NCBI GenBank assembly: GCA_900546715.1
Contig: UREA01000003.1
Location: 11,189-75,188, forward strand
DNA: 64,000 bases
Direction of reading: 5' to 3'
DNA from: an uncultured Mycoplasmatota bacterium
GTDB lineage: Bacteria > Bacillota_I > Bacilli_A > RF39 > UBA660
Positions 6,177 to 58,146 of the stretch are shown here, piece by piece (within the stretch, counting starts at the first letter, position 1; every line of letters starts with the position of its first letter). A program made the position numbers and the translations under genes. The notes below the pieces were generated by a model. The model saw nothing but the letters and a program-made list of their open reading frames with translations, searched no databases and was not told the origin of the DNA.

Positions 6177-7283
6177 ATGAACGAAATAAAAACTTTAGAA
6201 GAAAGAGAACAAAGTTTAATTGAAAAAGGTAAAAAGAAAGGTTTTATAACTTATGAAGAATTAGCTTTAGAATTAAAAGGCCTAGATATTGATAGTGATG
6301 CCCTAGATAATTTATATAATAAGTTAGTTGAAGCAAATATTTCTGTTGTAACTGAAGAAGATGTAGATTCATCAACTGGAGAAGTAAAAGTAAAACCTAA
6401 AGAAGAAGCGGAAGAAATTATTTTAGATGATGAAGATATCACAAAAGACATGAATATCAATGACCCCGTTAGAATGTATTTAAAAGAAATAGGTCGTATT
6501 TCTCTTTTATCAAGTGACGAAGAAATGGAAATATCTCAAAGAGTTGCTGCTGGGGATGAAGATGCTAAAAGAATTTTAGCCGAATCTAACCTTCGTTTAG
6601 TTGTATCAATTGCAAAACGTTATGTAGGTCGTGGTTTACTTTTTCTTGATTTAATTCAAGAAGGAAATATTGGTTTAATGAAAGCTGTTGAAAAATTCGA
6701 CTATGACAAAGGTTATAAATTCTCAACTTATGCAACATGGTGGATTAGACAAGCAATAACTAGAGCTCTAGCAGATCAAGCAAGAACTATTCGTGTTCCT
6801 GTTCACATGGTTGAAACAATTAATAAAATGTCTCGAGTTCAAAGACAACTTACTCTAGAACTTAACAGAGAACCTAGTGCTGAAGAAATAGCTGAAAAAA
6901 TGAAAGTTCCTGTAGATAAGGTAAGAGAAGTCATGAAAATAAGCCAAGAACCGGTTTCTCTAGAAACACCAATCGGGGAAGAAGAAGATTCCCATCTTGG
7001 AGATTTTCTAAAAGATGAATCAAGTCTTTCTCCAGAAGAATATACCGAAAATGAAATATTAAAAGAAGAAATAAAAGAAGTATTAATGTCTCTTCAAGCA
7101 AGAGAACAAGAAGTACTAGAGTTAAGATTTGGTTTAATCGATGGAACTTGTCATACTCTTGAAGAAGTAGGTAAGAAATTTAATGTAACAAGAGAAAGAA
7201 TTCGTCAAATTGAAGCTAAAGCTCTAAGAAAATTAAGACATCCTTCTCGTGCTAAAAAATTAAAGGATTTCCTAGAAGAATGA
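6177..7283 (+). CDS. sigA: RNA polymerase primary sigma factor
   Basis: Regions 2-4 are recognisable: [60 protein letters not shown] before the ATG at 6177. Ends at TGA. Confidence 0.95.
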
Positions 7284-8683: not shown

Positions 8684-8786
8684 ATGTCATATATTAACTT
8701 AAACTTCCACGACATTTTGTGTCAATTTTTTATTGACATCAAATGTCATATGAAATATAATTAGAATATAGACGCGGAATGTCGTG
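8684..8786. promoter_or_regulatory. divergent promoter/operator region between the XRE gene and surface-protein paralog 1
   Basis: Perfect TTGACA (8733-8738), 17-nt spacer, TATAAT (8756-8761) facing the + gene. ATGTCATAT occurs at 8684-8692 and 8743-8751. A perfect 9-bp inverted repeat CACGACATT (8708-8716) / AATGTCGTG (8778-8786) is also present. Confidence 0.55.
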
Positions 8787-8795
8787 AGGTGTGAT

Positions 8796-10553
8796 ATGAA
8801 GGAGAAAAAAATAATATTAATTGGAATAAGTAGTGTATTTGTAATGGCTTTACTAATTACAACATTAACACTTACTTTAGGTGGTGATAATGATAATGTA
8901 TTATTAAGCGATAATGCAAATGATAAAAATTTAATTAACAATTCATTTTTAACCTTAATGTTAGAACAAAGTGATGGAACATATAAAGAATCAACTTCTA
9001 ATACATGGCCAAGTGGTAATTATGCTTTTAATGAAACATTAAGCAGGTGTGAAAATGGGGGAGAACTAAAGTGGGATAGAGAAAAAGGCATAGTAAATCT
9101 ACTTAGTAATAAATCAGATGCTTGTTATGTATATTTTGATTTATATAATGCAGTAGAAATTACTGATGTAAATACAACAAAAACAACAAATAGTGTTACT
9201 CTAACAGTAACAGTAGAAGCAGGAGAAAATCCAATAGCAACATATTATTTTAGTATGGATGGTGGTAATAGTTATCAAGAAAGTAATACCAACACTTATA
9301 CATTTAGTAATCTTGATAATGGAACAACATATACTTTTCAAGTGTATGTTGTAGATACAGAAGGTTATGAATCAAATGAAGAAGTAATAGAAGTAACTAC
9401 AGATAACTATGTAAATCCTGTTGTTAATAGTGTAACAGCAACAAGTGTAACAAATAATACAATAACAGTAAGTGTATCAGCAAGTGCGGGAACAAATGCA
9501 ATAGGAACATATATGTATTCCATAAATAATGGTTCATACACAAGTTCAAGTAGTAATACTCATACATTTAGTGGACTTTCTGCCGGAACAAGTTATACAA
9601 TAAAGGTAAAAGTAAAAGATACAAACAACATAGAATCAAGTGAATATACAATAATCACAAAAACAGAAGATACAGTATTATTAGCAGATTATATAAAGAG
9701 TAAATATACAAGCCAAAGCTCAAATGGACTTTATTATCATACAAGTTCACTAGCAAATTCAGCAGGAGATAATAGCTATAGGTATGCCGGAGCAAATCCA
9801 AATAACTATGTGTGTTTTGGTTCAAGTGCAGCGACATGCCCAAGCAATAATCTGTACCGAATAATTGGTGTTTTTGGAGATGAAGTAAAATTAATCATGG
9901 CAGATTATCCAACAACGAGTCAAACAGGAACAATAGGAGCATATTTTGACACATATTCAAGGGTAGGATTGAGTTCTAGTAATTATAAAGGAAATCAAAG
10001 CTTATCATCAGTAGGAACATATTATTGGAATCGGAATCCAAGCGGAAGCAATACATGGAGTAGTAGCAGTTTGGTAACAACAAACTTAAATACAACATTT
10101 TTAAATAATATAAGTTCGATATGGAGAAACAAAATAGCTGACAAAACGTGGTTTGTAAATGGATATGGTACATATAATGCAACTCCAAAAGAATTTTATA
10201 ATGCAGAAAGTAGTGGAACGACATGGAGTGGAAAGGTAGGATTAATATATGTAAGTGATTACGGATATGCAGCAAGTAATAGTTTATGGTCAACAATTAT
10301 GGGTTCTTATTATAAATCGTCAATAACAAGTAATAATTGGATGTATATGGGATTAGACGAATGGACAATTTCCCGGTGTTCTAGTAGTAATAGCTATGCA
10401 TACCGAGTAAATAATTCTGGCAATGTATACTACCATTACAGTGATTACTTGTATTACCGATATTATGCTATCCGTCCTTGTTTCTACCTCATCTCATCAA
10501 CTCAATATGTCAGCGGATCAGGAACTCAATCTGACCCAATTCGCATAAATTAA
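8796..10553 (+). CDS. membrane-anchored surface protein, paralog 1 (N-terminal TM, two FN3-like repeats, C-terminal lectin-like/DUF6273-like domain)
   Basis: GAGGTG RBS and ATG at 8796. Repeated about 90-aa modules (ITV.V.ASAGTN..TY.YSINNGSYTSSSSNT.TFSGLSAG.SY). C-terminal pattern NNWMY.G..EWTISR...RV...G.V....IRPCFYL...SGSG..DPIRIN. Confidence 0.75.
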   Translation: MKEKKIILIGISSVFVMALLITTLTLTLGGDNDNVLLSDNANDKNLINNSFLTLMLEQSDGTYKESTSNTWPSGNYAFNETLSRCENGGELKWDREKGIVNLLSNKSDACYVYFDLYNAVEITDVNTTKTTNSVTLTVTVEAGENPIATYYFSMDGGNSYQESNTNTYTFSNLDNGTTYTFQVYVVDTEGYESNEEVIEVTTDNYVNPVVNSVTATSVTNNTITVSVSASAGTNAIGTYMYSINNGSYTSSSSNTHTFSGLSAGTSYTIKVKVKDTNNIESSEYTIITKTEDTVLLADYIKSKYTSQSSNGLYYHTSSLANSAGDNSYRYAGANPNNYVCFGSSAATCPSNNLYRIIGVFGDEVKLIMADYPTTSQTGTIGAYFDTYSRVGLSSSNYKGNQSLSSVGTYYWNRNPSGSNTWSSSSLVTTNLNTTFLNNISSIWRNKIADKTWFVNGYGTYNATPKEFYNAESSGTTWSGKVGLIYVSDYGYAASNSLWSTIMGSYYKSSITSNNWMYMGLDEWTISRCSSSNSYAYRVNNSGNVYYHYSDYLYYRYYAIRPCFYLISSTQYVSGSGTQSDPIRIN

Positions 10554-10636: not shown

Positions 10637-12229
10637 ATGTTAGAGATAACTCAAGATGATAAAAAACTGAAACAAAAGAATCATACAAGTTTTACAGAAG
10701 TATTTAGAATGATTTATATAATTATATATAACATATTTTATTTTGCCATTTTAGGGGCTAAATTTGTTTTTGTAGATATATGGGTTACATTATTTACTGG
10801 AGCAAGTTATCAAGTAGATAGAACTTATCAAAAAACTAAAAAACACTTTGAGTCAGAAGAAGAAAAAATATATGAAATGACTAAAAGCAAAGCTAAGAAA
10901 CAAAAAATATATAAATATAATGCTAAAACTCTAGCTAAACTTGAAGAACAAAAGAAACAATTACTTCTTGATTTACAAACTGCTGGAGCAACAAGAAGTA
11001 AAGTACCTCACATCTATCGTTATAAAGCGAAAGATAAGAATGGACGAATTATAACTGGTACAATGAATGGATATTCTAAACTAGATATTAATTCTTATTT
11101 ACTTAATGAAGGCTATGATGTATACGAAATAAAAACAACACCATTTTATGATTTTATGTATCAAAAATCAGGATTTTTTGGAACTCCAAAAATGTCTACC
11201 AAAGATCTAATATTTTGGTTAACTCAATTATCAACCTATATTAAAGCTGGTATAACATTAAGTGAAGCCGTAAAAATACTTACTAATCAAATGGGTAAAA
11301 ACAAATCACGCAGAGATGCATTTAAAGCTATTTCATATGAACTTACTTTAGGAGAATCTTTTTCTAATGCCTTAGCTAAACAAGGTAACATGTTTCCAGC
11401 ACTTTTAATTAATATGATTAAAGCTGCTGAAGCAAGTGGTACACTTATAGAAACATTAGATGATATGTCAAATTATTACTCAGAAATTTATGAAACTAGA
11501 AAACAAATGGTTAGTGCTATGACTTATCCTGCAATAGTAATGGTTTTTTCAATTGCAGTTATTATATTCATATTAGTATATGTTGTACCACAATTTACAC
11601 AAATTTATGCAGAAAATGATGCACCAATTGCAGGTATTACCAAAATAGTTATAGATGCTAGTACCTTTATTAAAAATGAATGGTATATTATTTTAGCTAT
11701 TGTTGTATTAGTAATTGTAACTATTGTTGTATTATATAAATATGTAAAAGCATTTAGGACCTATATGCAAGTCTTTTTAATGCATTTACCAGTTATTAAA
11801 GATGTTATCATTTATAATGAAATGACTATATTTACGAAAACATTTGCATCCCTGCTTCGTAATAATGTCTTTATTACTGATAGTATGGATATTTTAAGTA
11901 AAATAACTAATAATGAAATATATAAAGCGATTCTTTATAAAACTATTAATAATATAGTTAAAGGTGAAAAAATATCAGAAGCTTTTAAAGATCACTGGGC
12001 AGTACCTGATGTTGCTTATTACATGATAGTTACTGGTGAATCAACCGGAGATCTAGCAACAATGATGCAAAAGGTAAGTGAATATTATCAATTATTACAC
12101 AAAAATATAATTAATAATTTAAAAGCATTTATTGAACCCGTTATGATTGCCTTTTTAGCGGTAGTTGTTGGGTTAATTATAATTGCAGTAATTGTACCAA
12201 TGTTTGGTATGTATGAACAAATTCAATAG
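10637..12229 (+). CDS. type II secretion/type IV pilus platform protein (GspF/PilC/ComGB family) with an extra N-terminal region of about 125 aa
   Basis: YRYKAKDKNGRIITGTMNGYS..LLNEGYDVYEI N-domain. Two repeats of the GspF fold (AGITLSEAVKIL, GEKISEAFK) and 3 TM segments. The extension carries a hydrophobic segment and a Lys-rich coiled region. Confidence 0.8.
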   Translation: MLEITQDDKKLKQKNHTSFTEVFRMIYIIIYNIFYFAILGAKFVFVDIWVTLFTGASYQVDRTYQKTKKHFESEEEKIYEMTKSKAKKQKIYKYNAKTLAKLEEQKKQLLLDLQTAGATRSKVPHIYRYKAKDKNGRIITGTMNGYSKLDINSYLLNEGYDVYEIKTTPFYDFMYQKSGFFGTPKMSTKDLIFWLTQLSTYIKAGITLSEAVKILTNQMGKNKSRRDAFKAISYELTLGESFSNALAKQGNMFPALLINMIKAAEASGTLIETLDDMSNYYSEIYETRKQMVSAMTYPAIVMVFSIAVIIFILVYVVPQFTQIYAENDAPIAGITKIVIDASTFIKNEWYIILAIVVLVIVTIVVLYKYVKAFRTYMQVFLMHLPVIKDVIIYNEMTIFTKTFASLLRNNVFITDSMDILSKITNNEIYKAILYKTINNIVKGEKISEAFKDHWAVPDVAYYMIVTGESTGDLATMMQKVSEYYQLLHKNIINNLKAFIEPVMIAFLAVVVGLIIIAVIVPMFGMYEQIQ

Positions 12230-22231: not shown

Positions 22232-23114
22232 TTAAAGTATATTAAAAAAAGACAAGTTTATGATGCTTGTCTTTAACATAATACAAGTATTATTCCTTAA
22301 ATAATCTAAATATTCCCTAAATTCTTTATTATCACTCTCTACTTGTAAAACAAAATTAATTCTTCCTATTAAAGTATTAATATATTTATCTTAATTGTTA
22401 TATTTAATAAAGGAACTTGGTCTTTTACTACTATTTAAAACTCTAATTTTATCATAATTAAGTTTAAAATGATATTTTTTTAGCAGATTTCTTACTATAA
22501 CTATAAGATCATTAGGATTAAAATCACCAGAGAATATTAAATCATCAGAATATCTAGTATAACTTATATTTAAATTATCACAACACTTACCTACTTCTTC
22601 ATCAAAACTTCTTAAAATTAAATTAGAAATATAAGCTGGTTGGTGTTCCTTGTGGTAGTTCATTATTATACATACAGATATTAGTAAGTAAAATACCTAT
22701 CTTTTTAGGATATAGTGTTTCATTAAAACAAGTATTATATACCATATTAAAATTAATACTAGGAAAGAAATCTTTAATATCTAATTTTAAAATAATTCTT
22801 TTATTAATATGAACTTTAGCATTATCCACTAAACTAATTCCCTTTTGATAAGCGGTTGCATACCTAGATACTCTCATTTCTTCTAATATGTTTTTTAAAA
22901 TATTTCGCTGAACAGTTTTAAGTAAGTTACTTGGTTCATAAATTGTTCTAAAACTACCGTTTTTCTTGGAAATTTCAAAGCTTATATAATTAGCATCTAA
23001 ATTATTAGACAAATAATATAATATTTTCTTAACCTTTTTTATATCATTAGTTTTAAGCAAATTAAAAGAAAGTAAAAATTCATCATACATTTTATCAGTT
23101 AAATGTTTCCACAT
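22232..23114 (-). pseudogene. retron-type reverse transcriptase, disrupted (one frameshift, one in-frame TAA)
   Basis: LPQGTPTS, then a frameshift near 22640, then AYISNLILRSFD ... YTRYSDDLIFS (YxDD). The frame stays open past the TAA at 22391-22393 (DKYINTLIGRINFVLQVE...). GGAAGTG RBS before the ATG at 23114. Confidence 0.7.
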
Positions 23115-23130
23115 AATTTTCACTTCCTTT

Positions 23131-23271
23131 AAAAGCAATACTAAATATTATAAATATGGAAATGTACTTTACATAACGCAGTTATGGGTAGTTACATTGG
23201 AATATTTATGCGATATATTTACTAAATCTCCACTTAAACGACTCGTTTAAATATAGGACGCTATTGCTTTT
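23131..23271 (-). ncRNA. candidate retron msr-msd non-coding RNA
   Basis: 10-bp inverted repeat AAAAGCAATA/TATTGCTTTT (23262-23271 and 23131-23140) brackets about 120 nt. Inside are hairpins TTAAACG-AGT-CGTTTAA and AATGTA..CATAAC-TGC-GTTATG..TACATT. A G follows a1. The 3' arm abuts the RT RBS and a TATAAT lies upstream. Confidence 0.5.
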
Positions 23272-32012: not shown

Positions 32013-33845
32013 TTATGCCATAGTTATATCTGGTATATCACTAAGTGGTGTATTATCCCCTACTGGATTTGGTGTAACTGTGCTGCTCGCCTGTGGTTGT
32101 AATCTCCAGCAAGCGGATACATCACAGTTAGATGAATATGGCATTGGGTTTGGCATTTCCATTTTAACAATCATTGGTATTTTAAAGGCTCCACCAAAAC
32201 AAACACAATTACCAGGTTGTAATACTTTTTGTTTATCTAGAATATCTGCTGAAATATTTGGAAGCATTTCGCCAATATATTTAATATCAAGTGGGTGAGT
32301 CATCTTAAATATCAAGAAATTATTACACTGAGCAATAACTGTATCAGATATTTCTACTGGTCTTTGACTAATAATATCAAGAATTACCCCATATTTTCTT
32401 CCTTCTTTAGCAATACGATCAAAGATATTATAACCAAGTAAGAATGTATCATTATCTTTTTGAATATATCTATGAGCTTCTTCTAAAAATAAATGGAAAG
32501 GTATTGTAGCTCTTTCACTTCTACCTTTAGAAAAATCAAATATCATTCTTGAAAATATCTTAACAAATACTTTAGCATATATATCATCAACATCTTCTAA
32601 ATTAATATTTATTATTTGGGCTTTTCTAGCTCCATTGGCAACTAATGATGATATATAATTTGGTAGTGTTACATATTCACTACTAAAGAATCTATTTAAT
32701 TTACTATTAATAATCGAATTTAGTCTAACTTTCAAAATTGTGGCATCATCATGTAAGTTTTGATTATGTTGAAATCCTTCACTAATTAAAGTAAATTCTA
32801 GGGCTGCCGCAAAATCCTTCAGTGAATATGCGGCCTTCTCCGGTTCTTTAATTGAATCTAAGTCATCATTAATTTTACTTAAAATATAATTAGTAATTAG
32901 TACTGATTCTCCAAAATTACCATTAGAATCTATTTCAAAACATTCACTTAAAGTTCTAGTATATCCAAGCCCCGGTATTACTGAATCAAAATTAAATTCT
33001 GGTGTATGACATACTTCAATTATTGTAAATATTTCATTTTTCTTGCTAGCTACTGTTTCATTTGAAAATAATACTGCAAGTAAAGCTTTAGCAATTAAAT
33101 GATTTTTATATTGATTAGCTTCTTCACTATTAGTTGAAAATATTTTAGCAAGTTTAATAGTATGTTCAATTATTGGTAGTTGGGCATGATCACTTGCTTG
33201 AAATAATAAGGCAAAATCATCTAATGTAAGTAGATTTACAGGAATACTTAATGGAATATCTGTATCATCTTGGGGATTCGTTGTAATAAATTTATAACAA
33301 TAATTAGGATTTATTTCATTAAGTTTTCCAAAAGCATTTTTATATTCCCCAAATGAATCAAAGATAAATAAATTAGCATTATATTGGACATTAAACTTAG
33401 AATTAAAGATATTTTGAATAATTCTAGCCACCCCACAAGATTTACCAGAACCAGAGTTACCAAATATTGCTAAGTGATTAGAAAACAAATTATTAATATT
33501 TGGACATATCTTAAATCCTTTATAAATAGCACTTTCTCCTAAAACAAAGCTTGATTCATCATAGGTACCAACAAGTTCCATTAATTCAGCTTGATTAATC
33601 ATTCTTATTTTACTTGTTAAAAGCGGCTTTCTTAAAACCCCATTTACATACTTACCATTAATATATTCTCCTAAAAATCTTATTTTAATAACTTGACTAC
33701 CAAGTTCAAATACTTCTCCAAGAATTCTTTGTTCTCCTTCTTCAAATATAACATTTAAATTCATTAAATCAGCAGCACTAGCTTCTGTATTTAAATTTTC
33801 TACATGAGCTTCACTATCACCAATATAAACTATTTTTCCAAACAT
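32013..33845 (-). CDS. HerA-type (FtsK-HerA superfamily, DUF87) ATPase
   Basis: N-terminal HAS-barrel-like region (GKIVYIGDSEAHVE...ILGEVFELGSQVIKIRFLGE). Walker A FGNSGSGKS, Walker B HLFLEEAHRY, and EGRKYGVILDIISQRP. Confidence 0.8.
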   Translation of the reverse strand: MFGKIVYIGDSEAHVENLNTEASAADLMNLNVIFEEGEQRILGEVFELGSQVIKIRFLGEYINGKYVNGVLRKPLLTSKIRMINQAELMELVGTYDESSFVLGESAIYKGFKICPNINNLFSNHLAIFGNSGSGKSCGVARIIQNIFNSKFNVQYNANLFIFDSFGEYKNAFGKLNEINPNYCYKFITTNPQDDTDIPLSIPVNLLTLDDFALLFQASDHAQLPIIEHTIKLAKIFSTNSEEANQYKNHLIAKALLAVLFSNETVASKKNEIFTIIEVCHTPEFNFDSVIPGLGYTRTLSECFEIDSNGNFGESVLITNYILSKINDDLDSIKEPEKAAYSLKDFAAALEFTLISEGFQHNQNLHDDATILKVRLNSIINSKLNRFFSSEYVTLPNYISSLVANGARKAQIININLEDVDDIYAKVFVKIFSRMIFDFSKGRSERATIPFHLFLEEAHRYIQKDNDTFLLGYNIFDRIAKEGRKYGVILDIISQRPVEISDTVIAQCNNFLIFKMTHPLDIKYIGEMLPNISADILDKQKVLQPGNCVCFGGAFKIPMIVKMEMPNPMPYSSNCDVSACWRLQPQASSTVTPNPVGDNTPLSDIPDITMA

Positions 33846-33854
33846 AATATTCTC

Positions 33855-34313
33855 CTATTCTACAATAAATTCTCTATCTCCCATAATAAAATTTCCTAAA
33901 ACTCCATCATCTATGGGTATAAAATACATAAGTATTTCATCACTATCTTCTATTACCTTATTTACATGATAAGTTAAATTAATCTGTGTATCCAACACTT
34001 CTACTTCAATTTCATCATAAAATTCTAATGTATCATCATAATTAATAAAATCTACAATATAATCATTAGTATTTAAATCATTTGCAGTTAAGAAAACTAA
34101 TTCATGAATATCATAATCTGCCAAAAAAGCTACATACTCTTCATATGTTTTAATCAATGTTGGATTATAATAAGTATTATCATCTTTTTTTATAACAATG
34201 CCTTCCACTACTTCTCTATAACTATTGCCTCTAGTACCTAAATAAATCCCTAAACAAGCGGCCCCTAAAACAATTATTATAGCAAGCGTCGTAATAAATA
34301 ATCTTTGTCTCAT
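33855..34313 (-). CDS. bitopic membrane protein (about 152 aa), HerA-operon gene 2
   Basis: MRQRLFITTLAIIIVLGAACLGIYLG TM segment. ATGA overlap with the upstream gene and a 9-nt gap with an AGGAG RBS before the HerA gene. Confidence 0.65.
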   Translation of the reverse strand: MRQRLFITTLAIIIVLGAACLGIYLGTRGNSYREVVEGIVIKKDDNTYYNPTLIKTYEEYVAFLADYDIHELVFLTANDLNTNDYIVDFINYDDTLEFYDEIEVEVLDTQINLTYHVNKVIEDSDEILMYFIPIDDGVLGNFIMGDREFIVE

Positions 34314-35077
34314 AAAATCTCCGTACCAATCCAATTATAATGATCATTATTAATAATAAAACTACTTCTATAACTTACTCTTCTTCTAGTTAAATGTTTA
34401 TTAATATATTCATCTAATGTTAAATTATCTTCATTTACATCATTACTATTAAATTCCAATAACACTTCCTCATATAAACCATTACTATATACTTTATATT
34501 CTACTACTCCATCAATACTCTCTTCACTATAAAAAAGTATACTTTCATCTAAATATATTTTATCATCACTTATGCTAATATTTTCTATATCTCTATCAGC
34601 TTTATAAAGTATTCCTTCATAATCAAGTATATTACATACATATTCTTGATTTATATATTCACAATTATTCTTTCCATTTACATTAAAACTTTCATTTACT
34701 ATTATTTTATCATTTCCATACATATTACTTACAATGTTAATAAGTTCATTACTATCAATTTTACTTTCACTTACACTATACATTCCTTTAGTAAGCAATA
34801 TCTTATTATCTATATCTTTTATAGTTACTAACTTATCTTGATAAGAACTTTTATACTCTTTATTATTTACAGTAACATATGGTATTAAATTCTCAAGTTC
34901 TAAACTTAAAGAATCTACTCCTCCATCAAAATTAACAACTGTATTAATATCCATATCACTACTATCTTTATTAATCCAATTATTAACATAAAGCAATATA
35001 CAAATAACCAATAACAATATAAATATAATAAATCCCAGTATTATATTTTCTTTTCCTTCTTTAGTATCATATTTCAT
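34310..35077 (-). CDS. bitopic membrane protein (255 aa), HerA-operon gene 1
   Basis: Single N-terminal TM segment (IILGFIIFILLLVICILLYV) and an Asn/Asp/Tyr-rich ectodomain. Extended -10 (TGTTATACT) upstream. Confidence 0.65.
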   Translation of the reverse strand: MKYDTKEGKENIILGFIIFILLLVICILLYVNNWINKDSSDMDINTVVNFDGGVDSLSLELENLIPYVTVNNKEYKSSYQDKLVTIKDIDNKILLTKGMYSVSESKIDSNELINIVSNMYGNDKIIVNESFNVNGKNNCEYINQEYVCNILDYEGILYKADRDIENISISDDKIYLDESILFYSEESIDGVVEYKVYSNGLYEEVLLEFNSNDVNEDNLTLDEYINKHLTRRRVSYRSSFIINNDHYNWIGTEIL

Positions 35078-35142
35078 TTATATCACCTATTCTTTAATAA
35101 AAGTATAACACAAAACCTATATTTAAGTAAATAATGTATTGT

Positions 35143-35196
35143 AAAAAAACTGATAAACTATCAACTTTTAACTTTGACATATTTATCAGTTTTTAT
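35143..35196. terminator. bidirectional terminator between paralog 2 and the HerA operon
   Basis: ACTGATAAA/TTTATCAGT stem flanked by an A-run and a T-run. Confidence 0.45.
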
Positions 35197-35262
35197 TTTA
35201 ACATTTATATTCTTTGAAATTATATATTTTTAAATTAATTTATAAAAATTTACACACTTCTA

Positions 35263-35515
35263 TTGACAAGGTCTCCATTCGCTCTAAAATTCACCCCGCT
35301 CGCCTGGACCGCAAGGGCCCTAGACGAGCAATGTCCTAGCCTCAATTCACACGAATCGGGTCAGTGGACAAGCCACTTCCCGATGCATATGTTATCGAAG
35401 ATGTTAGATAAAAGACTGGCCGCACGCCGTGCGAATTGCTCACTGTACTGTCAGAGACATCGCCAGCGGAATCCACTCGAAAGGCAGCAGTCGAAACGTA
35501 CGAATCGCGGGAAAT
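35263..35515 (-). other. GC-rich recoded cassette covering the last 57 codons of paralog 2 plus about 80 nt of 3' flank
   Basis: Hand count gives about 55% GC against a background of about 27%. Codons switch to TCG/CGC/GCC/GGC/CGG/CCG right after the conserved EWTISR. AT-rich sequence resumes abruptly at 35262. Confidence 0.8.
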
Positions 35516-37036
35516 AGTCCATTCTTCAGAACCTAAGTACATCCAATTATTGTCTCTAACAGTGGTTGAATCATAACTACTTAATCCTGTTGTCCAATTA
35601 CTATTACTTGCCGCATATCCGTAATCACTTACATACATCAAGCCAATTTTGGCACTATATGTTGTACTACTTGAGCTACTTCCTACTTCGTAATTGTATG
35701 CTGCTTTTGGTGTTCTTATTCCATTTGAATATATCATTCCTCCTACTTTCCAGTTTGTTGTTGCTATCTTATTTTGCCATGTACTACTTAATCCACTTAT
35801 ATATGTTCCATTTAATGTCCCTGTATTTAATGTACTACTACTCCATCTATTAATTCTACTTGAGTTTGATCCACTCCAATAGTAGTTTCCTATACTTGTG
35901 TTTTTGATTAGTTTTACTTGATTGCCAAATACTCCTATTATTCGATACAAATTATCACTTGGACATGTACTTGCAGTACTTCCAAAACAGACATAATTAT
36001 TTGGATTTGCCCCGGCATATCTATAGGAACTATCACCTGCTGAATTAGCTAAACTACTTGTATGATAATATAGTCCATTTGAGCCTTGGCTTGTATATTG
36101 ATTTTTTATACATGTTGCTAAATTTGTGCCAGTATTGCAAATATATGTTACACTTTCTGTTTCGGCATTTATTGTATATACATTTGAATCTACTCCATTG
36201 GTATCTTTTACATATACTCTTATACTATAATTTTGTCCAGCACTTAATCCACTAAATGTATAGGTATTTGAGCTTGAACTTGTATAACTTCCATTATTTA
36301 TTGAATAATAATAGTTTTGAATATTGTTTGTTCCTCCACTTGCATTTACACTTACCGTTATTGAATCATTACTTACACTTGTTGCTGTTACACTGTTTAC
36401 TGTAGGATTTACATAGTTATCTGTTGTTACTTCTATTGTTTCTTCATTTGATTCATATCCAAGTGTATCTTTTGCATACACTTGGATAGTATATTCATGA
36501 TTCATCGTTAAATTACTAAATATATAACTTGGTGTACTACTTTCTTGATAACTGTTTCCCCCATCTATACTAAAATAGTATTTATCTACAGGATTTTCTC
36601 CTCCAGATGTAGTTATTGTTACAGTTATACTATTATAAGTTTTTGTAGATTCTACATTACTTATTTGTACTACATTATATAAATCAAAATATACATAACA
36701 AGCATCTGATTTATTACTTAATAATTCTACTATACCTTCTTCTCTATTCCATCTTAGTTCTCCACCATTTTCACATCTACTTAATTCACTATTAAAAGCA
36801 TAATTTCCACTTGGCCATGTATTAGTTGTTGATTCTTGATATGTTCCATCACTTTGTTCCAACATTAATGTTAGAAATGAATTATTGATTAAGTTTTTAT
36901 TGTTATTGTTGTTAGCCATAAAATTGTTTTGATTATTATTTTTAATCAACATAAAACAAATTATTGTTATTAACATAATTATAAATATACTTCCTATCAA
37001 AATTATTTTTTTGTGATTTTTTACCTTTTCCATCAT
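35342..37036 (-). CDS. membrane-anchored surface protein, paralog 2 (TM, two FN3-like repeats, lectin-like C-domain)
   Basis: Collinear with 8796..10553 over the N-domain, both FN3-like repeats and the C-domain scaffold (YRYAGANPNNYVCFGS, NLYRIIGVFG, GLMYVSDYGYAAS, EWTISR, RPVFYL, DPIRVN). AGGAG RBS. Confidence 0.8.
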   Translation of the reverse strand: MMEKVKNHKKIILIGSIFIIMLITIICFMLIKNNNQNNFMANNNNNKNLINNSFLTLMLEQSDGTYQESTTNTWPSGNYAFNSELSRCENGGELRWNREEGIVELLSNKSDACYVYFDLYNVVQISNVESTKTYNSITVTITTSGGENPVDKYYFSIDGGNSYQESSTPSYIFSNLTMNHEYTIQVYAKDTLGYESNEETIEVTTDNYVNPTVNSVTATSVSNDSITVSVNASGGTNNIQNYYYSINNGSYTSSSSNTYTFSGLSAGQNYSIRVYVKDTNGVDSNVYTINAETESVTYICNTGTNLATCIKNQYTSQGSNGLYYHTSSLANSAGDSSYRYAGANPNNYVCFGSTASTCPSDNLYRIIGVFGNQVKLIKNTSIGNYYWSGSNSSRINRWSSSTLNTGTLNGTYISGLSSTWQNKIATTNWKVGGMIYSNGIRTPKAAYNYEVGSSSSSTTYSAKIGLMYVSDYGYAASNSNWTTGLSSYDSTTVRDNNWMYLGSEEWTISRDSYVSTAAFRVDSAGDVSDSTVSNSHGVRPVFYLTSSITYASGSGLSTDPIRVN

Positions 37037-51203: not shown

Positions 51204-51662
51204 CTACAAATTAAATTCAACAAGTATATATTTTTTATCTGAAAAACTATTTCTGACAGTTTTTATCAAACGATATCTACTTGTTAAAGTCCCATATATT
51301 TTTTCCCAATTTATTTCCATTATTAAAATATTATCTTCATTTACTTCATATCCTTCCATAGTTGTTACCACATTATTTTCTAATTTTTTTAATTCAACCC
51401 ATTTATTATTCTCATATCTTTCTATACTATAATCTTTTCCATATGTATTATCATTATTACTTAGATCAGTAATAATAACTTTTGTCCCAGTATTTGTCAA
51501 AGTGTCATCCATTATTTCCATCGTTACATTTTCTGCTAAATTTTCTTTTGCATATTTTCCTTCGTTTAGATAATTATTATTTTTATCGAACAGCAAAACT
51601 ATAATCACAAATAAAATTATACAAATAACTACAATCAAAAATCTTTTTTTATAAACTTTCAT
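51204..51662 (-). CDS. small signal-anchored protein (152 aa)
   Basis: N-terminal TM segment followed by an ectodomain. Confidence 0.5.
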   Translation of the reverse strand: MKVYKKRFLIVVICIILFVIIVLLFDKNNNYLNEGKYAKENLAENVTMEIMDDTLTNTGTKVIITDLSNNDNTYGKDYSIERYENNKWVELKKLENNVVTTMEGYEVNEDNILIMEINWEKIYGTLTSRYRLIKTVRNSFSDKKYILVEFNL

Positions 51663-51735
51663 TAACTACCTCTTTTTCTTAACTATATATTACCATTATT
51701 CTTATAAAAAGAATAGCAAAACTTTCTTGCTATTG

Positions 51736-54375: not shown

Positions 54376-54460
54376 TTTACCACCTTTAATTCTTCTACTA
54401 TAATAATATCATAAAATAAGAAAAAAGAATAGCAAACCTTATAACTTCTTTATTAAAAAA

Positions 54461-54940
54461 TTAAACATATTCTTCTATAATCGCTTTTAAACAGATTTCA
54501 TCTGTTTTTGGTGATTCATATTCCGGAGCAAAACAAAAATATATATTATCTTTATTATTTAATAAATCATTTATTATATTATTATGATTTTTATCATCTA
54601 TAATATAAACCGTATTAAAATTGATTTGATTACTATCTAACATAATCCTATCTTTATTATTACCAATATATATTCTTATTTGATTATAATAATTTATTGA
54701 ACAAGTATTTAACTCTTTATCTTCAATATTTATAGATTCAACCATAAAATTAAAGGAATCTTTATAATTGCTATCAACAATTATTCCACTACCAACAAAA
54801 CCTATTCCTTCTTCTATTTCTAAGTTTATAGAATAAAACTTAATTTTAGATTTATGTAAAACAACCAGAAATAATATTAATATTATCAAAAATAACAAAA
54901 TTAATATAAATATTTTATATTTTTTTAATATCTTTTTCAT
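54461..54940 (-). CDS. signal-anchored protein, tandem paralog 1
   Basis: Shares GSGIIVDSNYKDSFNF...CSINYYNQIRIYIGN...DLLNNKDNIYFCF with the adjacent gene. Confidence 0.6.
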   Translation of the reverse strand: MKKILKKYKIFILILLFLIILILFLVVLHKSKIKFYSINLEIEEGIGFVGSGIIVDSNYKDSFNFMVESINIEDKELNTCSINYYNQIRIYIGNNKDRIMLDSNQINFNTVYIIDDKNHNNIINDLLNNKDNIYFCFAPEYESPKTDEICLKAIIEEYV

Positions 54941-54952
54941 TAAACACCAACC

Positions 54953-55420
54953 TTAATTACTTTCAATTATATAGGCTTTCAAACAAGATTCATTTATTGT
55001 TTCATTTTCTTGAGAAAAACAAAAATATATATCATCTTTATTATTTAATAAATCATTTACAAGTTTATTATGATTATTATCATCAACATAAATTGTATCA
55101 GCATTTATTTTAGTTGTATCTAATATTATTCTTTCTTCATTCCCGATGTAAATTCTAAATTGATTATAATAATCTATTGAACAATTTACAAGCTCGTTAT
55201 TTCTAGGAATTAAAGATTTTACAGTGAAACTAAAGGAATCTTTATAATTGCTATCAACAATTATTCCCCCACCAACAAAACTTATAATCTCTTTATTACT
55301 TTCATCTAAATGAAGCATATAAAACTTAGGTTTGGATTGGAATAAATAAAATATTAAAGTTACTATTAGACAAATTAATAAAATCAATATTATCCAAAAT
55401 ATTTTCGTATTTTTTTTCAT
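54953..55420 (-). CDS. signal-anchored protein, tandem paralog 2
   Basis: GGGIIVDSNYKDSFSF...CSIDYYNQFRIYIGN...DLLNNKDDIYFCF. Confidence 0.6.
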   Translation of the reverse strand: MKKNTKIFWIILILLICLIVTLIFYLFQSKPKFYMLHLDESNKEIISFVGGGIIVDSNYKDSFSFTVKSLIPRNNELVNCSIDYYNQFRIYIGNEERIILDTTKINADTIYVDDNNHNKLVNDLLNNKDDIYFCFSQENETINESCLKAYIIESN

Positions 55421-55591
55421 TAACTACCTCATTTCTTAATTACATATTATCATAAATAGTAAAAAAATAATAGCAAGAGTTACTTGCGAAAATAAATTAT
55501 ATGTCATATCACATTATTAATTATTTTTGTAAAAATATTTTTATTACTTTTAGAGTAATTTGTTACATTTTTAAATTTATAATCTTTTTCC

Positions 55592-58059: not shown

Positions 58060-58146
58060 ATACTACTCCTCTAACTTCATACTATCACAAATAGCAAAAA
58101 AAGAATAGCAAAACTTACTTGCATTTTGCCATTCTTACTTGCACTA

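Follow-up and report, generated by a model that had tools for sequence, protein, structure and literature searches.

In diversity-generating retroelements (DGRs), the variable regions (VRs) are displayed on a C-type-lectin-type (or Ig-type) binding fold and are usually C-terminal. The reverse transcriptases (RTs) of the DGR clade carry the hallmark IGNxxSQ instead of QGxxxSP, together with YxDD. The DGR of the Bordetella phage BPP-1 contains a VR in mtd, a template repeat (TR), avd, and brt, and the mechanism of this type has been summarised (PMC5758913). Related systems are the DGR of Treponema denticola (TvpA) and other remote-target DGRs, in which one TR/RT serves several VR genes located elsewhere, the DGRs of Legionella pneumophila and other members of the MutS-like (MSL) class (architecture D; Wu et al., 2018, PMC5758913), and the DGRs of gut phages with DUF6273 / C-type-lectin-like targets (tentaclins and Faecalibacterium prophage DGRs; PMC10743442). 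In our study, we analysed a window of 64,000 nucleotides, i.e., the whole stretch from position 11,189 to 75,188 of contig UREA01000003.1 of an uncultured Mycoplasmatota bacterium (GCA_900546715.1). The window contains two paralogous genes for surface proteins, and the gene of paralog 2 ends in a GC-rich tract. As judged from sequence, this gene end is very probably the acceptor end of a DGR target, in which the nucleotides 35416-35515 would be a VR derived from a TR of related genomes, named TR-A here.

The locus and BPP-1 share adenine-specific differences between TR and VR, the location of the VR at the 3' end of a gene encoding a C-type-lectin-fold binding protein, and a GC-rich inverted repeat downstream; the cassettes of the relatives also contain Avd and an IGNxxSQ RT. 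Unlike the phage tail-fibre gene of BPP-1, the present target is a chromosomal gene of an uncultured low-GC member of the Bacilli. Its inverted repeat is found about 86 nucleotides from the initiation of mutagenic homing (IMH) site, after a coding tail of 74 nucleotides, whereas that of BPP-1 directly follows the IMH. The cassettes of the relatives carry an extra MutS-like gene, and the target of the window stands alone. As in T. denticola, VR-only targets and the template were found apart, on different contigs of one metagenome-assembled genome (MAG), but the RT lineage, the target architecture (FN3 and DUF6273-like domain), and the host are different, and any DGR serving the window target would be more than ~28 kb away. 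A small MutS-domain-I-like accessory gene plus avd is shared with L. pneumophila and the other DGRs of the MSL class, to whose architecture the cassettes of the relatives correspond, whereas the gene order of the relatives (target-TR-MSL-avd-RT), the host phylum, and the target family are different. The variable domain is of the same kind as in the DUF6273 targets of gut phages; however, it is the C-terminal domain of a cellular membrane-anchored FN3 protein and not part of a phage receptor-binding protein. The mechanism is already known and no new mechanism is revealed; a distributed layout, if real, would be its least precedented aspect.

Variable Region and Template Repeat

The closest homolog is encoded on L001 (loci and contigs are given as L numbers), and this contig contained the variable stretch a second time, in an A-rich version. 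This copy was intergenic, located 388 nucleotides downstream (start to start), and 81% identical to the first copy of L001. Template scans were carried out with patterns from the conserved non-adenine stretches common to the repeat copies. Repeat copies were found in four MAGs labelled as uncultured Bacilli or uncultured bacterium in the scan of species-representative genomes and at one additional locus in the metagenome-contig scan, and further TR copies were present on contigs encoding the associated RT. The viral contig collection scanned with the TR/VR pattern contained no matches. TR-A (ATTTCCCGCAATTCGGACAATTCG…GGCGTGCGGCCAGACC) was 100 nucleotides long and identical in seven loci of related uncultured Bacilli (L001, L007, L008, L013, L028, L029, and L030).

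The TR-A copies used in the adenine test come from these related genomes and not from the window. The VR of the window contained 20 mismatches to TR-A. Of the 32 template adenines, 17 were mismatched, as compared with 3 of the 68 remaining bases (Fisher p = 5.5e-8). When eight distinct VRs were pooled, template adenines accounted for 121 of 129 substitutions, and 29 of these 32 adenines were variable. The window VR was thus found to possess the near-exclusive bias towards TR adenines by which a DGR is recognized. An IMH/IMH* pair is expected to have a GC-rich start and a similar but non-identical TR end, and both were present; the core of the IMH at 35416-35428 was common to the VR and TR-A. 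L028 and L029 did not differ in RT protein or TR-A, and yet their VRs were different; therefore, diversification with TR-A has been recent in nature.

An earlier note on this DNA had listed a DGR-style target with a template outside the window as one of two readings, and had proposed searching the complete genome and related metagenomes for a second copy. The search led to TR-A, with mismatches concentrated at template adenines, and in L028-L030 the template is found next to Avd and an IGNMTSQ RT. The extent of the copied segment, the site of the IMH, and the origin of the 3' flank had to be revised. Only 100 of the 253 nucleotides are templated, and the IMH belongs to the coding sequence and not to the 3' flank, since it is found at the codons for G-V-R-P, some 70 nucleotides ahead of the stop codon. 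The GC-rich tract after the stop codon, which had been taken as copied from the template, is instead a conserved hairpin module common to the target genes. The coordinates of the features are given in Table 1.

Table 1. Coordinates of the target gene, the parts of its GC-rich end, and its paralog in the window.
Feature	Position	Strand	Basis	Description
Target gene (paralog 2), 564 aa	35342..37036	minus	open reading frame (ORF)	N-terminal membrane anchor, two FN3 domains, and C-terminal C-type-lectin-like (DUF6273-like) domain with the candidate VR
Predicted C-terminal ligand-binding domain, residues 297-564	35345..36148	minus	AlphaFold2 model	enlarged C-type-lectin-like / DUF6273-like fold
GC-rich tract	35263..35515			three parts: candidate VR of 100 nt (35416-35515, minus), conserved coding tail of 74 nt, post-stop segment of 79 nt with 13-bp GC-rich hairpin
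Candidate DGR VR, 100 nt, residues 508-540	35416..35515	minus	gap-free alignment to TR-A	ISRDSYVSTAAFRVDSAGDVSDSTVSNSHGVRP
IMH	35409..35428	minus		GC-rich core GGCGTGCGGCCAG, same as TR end, then TCTTTTA; TR has ACCTTTA (IMH*) there
Non-templated coding tail and stop	35342..35415	minus		…FYLTSSITYASGSGLSTDPIRVN and stop; 74 nt, 42% GC; not present in TR
GC-rich inverted repeat	35298..35329	minus	folding	GCTCGTCTAGGGCC-CTTGC-GGTCCAGGCGAGC; 13-bp stem, one bulge, 5-nt loop
Last stretch of conserved 3' module	35263..35297	minus	blastn of loci against the window; downstream comparison	GGGGTGAATTTTAGAGCGAATGGAGACC…
Paralog 1	8784..10553	plus		aligns with paralog 2 to the very end; AT-rich in the VR-equivalent stretch

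According to the established DGR mechanism, the TR RNA would be reverse-transcribed by the Avd-assisted RT, with misincorporation opposite adenine. The cDNA would then replace the VR, bounded at the 3' side by the IMH and at the 5' side by the common ATTTCCCGC. In this way 17 codons would be randomised, 11 of which are AAY codons; this would allow about 1e16 peptide variants by our own arithmetic, and no stop codon could arise.

Four observations weigh against the assignment of the gene end as a DGR target. No TR, DGR RT, Avd, or MutS-like gene was found in the 64-kb window (for the genes, by regular expressions and tblastn). The window VR contained three non-adenine differences from TR-A, as compared with zero to two in the other VRs, which suggests that the cognate TR deviates slightly from TR-A or that some drift followed homing. 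The hairpin is located well apart from the IMH instead of directly after it as in BPP-1, and a role in homing is presumed for it. L014, the only orthologous contig that extends across the VR, contained an identical VR; however, the whole surrounding 2.1 kb was also identical, hence this contig is uninformative.

Other TR alleles of the same RT family were tried as templates. The TR of L034/L035, which is matched in length, fitted the window VR far more poorly than TR-A (18 non-A mismatches), and the 103-nucleotide A' alleles differ in length from the VR of 100 nucleotides. For a second group of VRs, the family-B VRs of L016 and L008, the TR of L032 gave 28-29 non-A mismatches, and no template was found among the tested TR alleles of this RT family.

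Retroelement Genes in Relatives and the State of the Window Target

Complete cassettes with an intact RT of 358-373 aa, containing IGNMTSQ and YMDD, were found in L024-L027 and L028-L030. The layout in L028-L030 was target, exact TR-A, a conserved non-coding stretch of ~430 nucleotides, a MutS-domain-I-like gene of 124 aa, an ORF of 114 aa at the Avd position, and an RT of 358 aa. L009 and L024-L027 contained the same layout with a 103-nucleotide TR variant, and the adjacent VRs followed the same adenine rule. The Avd-like genes of the relatives ranged from 114 to 122 aa. The ORF at the Avd position of L009 matched the NCBIfam model DivGenRetAVD (NF033474) with an E value of 2e-6, which does not reach the curated cut-off; Pfam MutS_I was matched by the MutS-like gene of the same locus.

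In the relatives, the DGR core is flanked by an FtsW gene and, at its other end, by an EssC-like FtsK_SpoIIIE gene. In L028 (4946-13954) and L029-L036 this was found to be a fixed chromosomal home, in which FtsW is accompanied by a divergent helix-turn-helix gene and the FtsK_SpoIIIE (EssC-like) gene of the opposite flank encodes 1519 aa; many small ORFs follow the EssC-like gene of the L028-L036 locus, as in a type VII secretion-like neighbourhood. Upstream of the TR, there was a conserved element resembling a promoter, with a small hairpin (TTCCGCTGGTATAGCGGATA(A)TAATACTATACT); one or two further copies of it were found in the region from the TR to the MSL gene (L001 1667-1705; L009 3445-3490 and 3125-3165, minus strand; L028 6750-6790 and 7060-7140).

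Exact TR-A copies were also found without MSL, Avd, and RT genes and with only about 150 nucleotides of the usual spacer, in L001 (1732-2000), L007, L008 (5480-5763), and L013 (11438-11730). These copies were located directly upstream of ruvA (L001, L007, and L008) or pgk (L013) and shared the right-hand boundary …AGTGAAGTGTTG[A/G]AGG; they resemble 'satellite' templates attached to a target gene. Truncated TR remnants (AATTTCCCACAATTCGAGTAATTCCAATTGATTAG…) were found in L006 (about 6720-6760) and in L011 (minus strand, ~330 nucleotides downstream of the VR), beyond otherwise normal VR-tail-hairpin-promoter modules, and are evidence of TR loss beside some targets. In L009 (1178-2121, minus strand) the DGR RT was split into ORFs of 137 and 176 aa at an A-rich site (…AAAATAATGAAAAAG…). 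Fragments of 119-217 aa were frequent among the members of the RT clusters and were found on several long contigs. The split RT genes could be the result of recurrent frameshifts or of assembly errors in A-runs, or could represent a switch.

In the window, neither a TR nor a second VR copy was found for either paralog by repeat search, blastn with a word size of 7, and a 'same base or A' scan, which gave only A-rich chance matches (79 of 100 positions in the best match for paralog 2). The FtsW / EssC-like neighbourhood was not found in the window. No sample of the window's strain (ERZ28656931, SRR5579995, and ERZ1310707/713/658) was shared with the RT in the cluster listing and four RT look-ups. 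Because the window contains no TR, RT, Avd, or MutS-like gene, the target is non-adjacent and would be either served in trans or recently orphaned; the distance from the target to any DGR is >28 kb on one side and >35 kb on the other. Precedents for trans targets were found in two MAGs. In CALVKF, contig 15 (L008) contained TR-A, and a VR-only target was located on contig 13 (L010); the tail of this target was identical, and the remnant after its hairpin was similarly short. In CALVIZ, a full DGR (L009) was accompanied by a second cognate VR, located on a separate contig (L006), with 17 A-site and 3 non-A mismatches.

The orphaned state is the strongest of the alternatives. The VR would have been written by a past DGR whose RT and TR have since been lost or become inactive, leaving the GC-rich tip as a frozen relic; we regard this as a serious possibility, although on balance an improbable one. 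The lack of TR, RT, and Avd within 64 kb is in its favour, and decay is known in this DGR family, as seen from the truncated remnants of L006 and L011, the TR copies without an adjacent RT at ruvA or pgk, and the many split RT fragments. Paralog 1 resembles a former VR that has drifted towards AT, and the three non-A mismatches to TR-A would also fit a relic. The identical VR of L014 could be counted on the same side, but it says little because the identity extends over 2.1 kb. On the other hand, the IMH core and the end of the TR are the same, an intact hairpin is present, and the VR has kept 57% GC under strong AT pressure; therefore, any loss of the machinery would be recent. MAGs with VR-only targets were found to contain a TR or a full DGR on further contigs, and the DGR of the relatives is found beside FtsW and the EssC-like gene, a neighbourhood that is outside this window.

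Recent homing of the target is supported by the preservation of the IMH and hairpin and by the GC content of the VR, which has not eroded in a 26% GC genome, and we lean towards the view that this copy is currently active in its genome.

The orthologous contigs L014-L018 were located via the neighbouring 255-aa gene. L015, L017, and L018 were found to end just downstream of the gene, at the hairpin or within about 180 nucleotides after it. L016 (1-1790), when compared with 34300-36100 of the window, was 100% identical from the IMH downstream (35400 to 34300), whereas upstream of the IMH it contained 23-47 mismatches or gaps per 100 nucleotides, with a diverged domain and a VR of the other family. 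This junction would result from recombination right at the IMH or from a chimeric join in the assembly of this contig, whose coverage is 2.6x.

A wider scheme is put forward only tentatively and is rather doubtful. This lineage of the Bacilli might run a distributed DGR network, with one RT/Avd/MSL core at the FtsW/EssC-like locus, RT-less satellite TRs (ruvA and pgk), and VR-only acceptors. The VR-tail-hairpin module would then be a portable acceptor cassette, swapped between paralogs by recombination at the IMH, as the L016 junction and the presence of different VR families at orthologous positions would suggest, and the frameshifts in the A-runs of the RT might act as an on/off switch.

Composition of the GC-Rich Tract and Its 3' Module

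The earlier note had estimated a jump to ~55% GC over ~250 bp in a window of ~27% GC, with ~19% adenine on the coding strand. The measured GC content was 52.6% for 35263-35515 and 25.9% for the window, and adenine amounted to 19.8% of the coding (minus) strand. In the GC profile of the whole window, the remaining 253-nucleotide windows had a mean GC content of 25.7% (sd 4.8), and none was above 40.7%. The six codons TCG, CGC, GCC, GGC, CGG, and CCG, which had been described as almost absent elsewhere, accounted for 12 of the final 57 codons of the target gene (211 per 1000), for 7 of 507 codons in the rest of the gene, and for 14.5 per 1000 across 45 ORFs of the window. The switch had been placed at EWTISR, and it begins at the ISR codons of this motif, at position 35515. 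The tract had been followed for about 80 nucleotides beyond the stop codon to a sharp end at 35262; we found 79 GC-rich nucleotides after the stop codon (35342-35344) and then an abrupt 3' edge, as the next 200 nucleotides (35063-35262) contained 16% GC. The alignment with paralog 1 continues throughout, as had been noticed, and paralog 1 is AT-rich there.

The tract was found to be composite, with 57% GC in the VR, 42% in the coding tail, and 57% in the post-stop segment. The VR contained 57% GC and 16% A, as compared with 44% GC and 32% A in TR-A. The invariant codons of the TR were without adenine (TCC, CGC, TCG, GCC, TTT, GTG, GTC, GGC, and CGG), and the variable codons were mostly AAY. 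The tract is GC-rich because the invariant TR codons lack adenine and the template adenines are randomised in the VR, which raises the GC content from 44% in the TR to 49-57% in the VRs. Adenine-free invariant codons such as TCG, CGC, GCC, GGC, GTG, and CGG would allow the scaffold residues to escape mutagenesis. The 'recoding' of the gene end is explained by the composition of the TR and adenine randomisation, without a foreign donor. A GC-rich, adenine-poor 3' block in a gene of an AT-rich genome can thus flag a DGR target even when the retroelement is out of view.

The other reading of the earlier note, in which the C-terminal tip was acquired by recombination from the homolog of a donor lineage with a much higher GC content and no retroelement took part, is very unlikely. 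It draws on the foreign composition and codon usage of the tract, on the cassette-like 3' module, whose tail is 97-100% identical between genes with upstream domains of 67-78%, and on L016, which switches sequence family exactly at the IMH. However, recombination alone does not predict an adenine bias; the differences are adenine-specific, and an intergenic template of the same AT-rich genomes agrees with the VR at 65 of 68 non-adenine positions. A GC-rich donor is not needed, since the same GC-rich scaffold is found in loci of 25-34% GC overall and the template avoids A in invariant codons; all loci carrying the module are themselves within this range. The junction of L016 is located in a repeat common to the paralogs on a contig of 2.6x coverage, and may be an assembly chimera. 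That the high GC content stems from a structured RNA gene embedded here or from faulty assembly, and not from the protein gene itself, can scarcely be credited: GC-rich islands of AT-rich genomes are often RNA genes and the post-stop part contains a stable hairpin, but no Rfam match was found for 34800-36000 on either strand at E values up to 10, the folding energy of the 96-nucleotide flank was unremarkable (z = -0.7), the reading frame is intact, the scaffold residues are conserved among the homologs listed (>5000 found), and the same junctions are present in the independent assemblies L014-L018.

As far as can be seen from the alignments, the coding tail and the GC hairpin form a conserved non-templated 3' module common to the targets of this DGR family. 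The coding tail was 97-99% identical to those of L001, L002, and L010, in which the upstream domain was just 71-78% identical. The hairpin was kept in L001, L006-L013, L024, and L028, i.e., in nearly all family-A loci, and was nearly invariant and hence without covariation. The homology of all related loci to the window stops at about 35283-35287, followed by AT-rich host DNA. GC-rich flanks have been reported as general in TR/VR pairs, and GC-rich inverted repeats downstream of the IMH were found in 34% of DGRs (Wu et al., 2018, PMC5758913). The module is probably a cis element for homing, for the end of the transcript, or for both. As an intrinsic terminator the hairpin was rejected, because it was not scored as one and no T-run follows it.

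Target Protein, Paralog 1, and Other Features of the Window

Pfam showed two FN3 domains in the target protein and nothing else. The AlphaFold2 model of the C-terminal domain had a predicted local distance difference test (pLDDT) score of 95.6, and the predicted fold is of the C-type-lectin type expected of a DGR target, with the VR at its C-terminus. The sole significant Foldseek match of the model in the PDB was 9qa6 (E 3.5e-7). This structure includes the N-terminal domain of the IgA peptidase (IgAse) of Thomasclavelia ramosa, which was described by the authors as an enlarged C-type lectin-like domain (PMC12237041). Among viral proteins, the top Foldseek matches were DUF6273 proteins, with template modelling (TM) scores of about 0.5. 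DUF6273 has been reported as a C-lec-like domain carrying the VR of DGRs (PMC10743442). The Pfam DUF6273 profile was matched by 16 of 60 close homologs (best E 9.7e-8), but the target protein itself gave no match to this profile (PF19789); the domain is a divergent relative of DUF6273 and not a formal member by sequence. A PDB sequence search with the domain profile gave no matches, and an exact look-up of the target protein returned no record.

The final 268 residues of the protein, when used as query, gave >5000 homologs. Among the homologs listed, the stretch from EWTISR to VRPxFYL was hypervariable and the scaffold S..AF.V..G.V…VRP was constant. The members of the membrane-anchored FN3/lectin-like family would be the hypervariable binding proteins of a gut lineage of the Bacilli that is uncultured and very low in GC, with ~17 randomisable codons in the variable residues of the window protein. 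With its natural trans targets, RT-less templates, and decayed VRs, the family could help in studying the gain and loss of DGR targets.

In paralog 1 the VR-equivalent stretch (10368-10480) contained 36% GC and was Tyr-rich; the IMH-equivalent was degenerate (GCTATCCGTCCTTG), and no GC hairpin was present. Three closely related assemblies contained this stretch unchanged. In another strain, the corresponding genomic position (L023, 1-330) was occupied by a GC-rich VR of the second family (IMH GCGGTCCGGTCAG), upstream of an identical T2SSF/PilC-like gene. Paralog 1 is probably a former target, which is no longer diversified and has drifted to the composition of the host; the contrast between the paralogs that had been noticed earlier would be explained by this drift.

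A retron-type RT pseudogene was found at 22391-23138 (minus strand), where a frameshift results in ORFs of 171 and 90 aa and the C-terminus is truncated. The best PADLOC model was RT_Ec107-like, with E values of 1.8e-56 and 2.9e-25. Its YSDD motif at about 22550 was considered as a signal of a DGR RT and rejected, as the gene is of the retron type with a QGTPTS motif, frameshifted, and truncated.

Directly downstream of the target gene, at 32013-35077 (minus strand), the window contained an ORF of 255 aa, an ORF of 159 aa (called as 152 aa in other assemblies), and then a HerA-like DUF87 ATPase of 610 aa. The first two ORFs had no Pfam match, and the trio was identical in L014-L018. An intergenic element of ~50-60 nucleotides (…AAAAAGAATAGCAAAACTT.CTTGC) was present in four copies upstream of minus-strand genes, at 51614-51730, 54391-54441, 55372-55487, and 58067-58122. 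The adjacent ORFs of 155 and 159 aa at 54461-55420 were found to be tandem paralogs with stretches of 80-86% identity.

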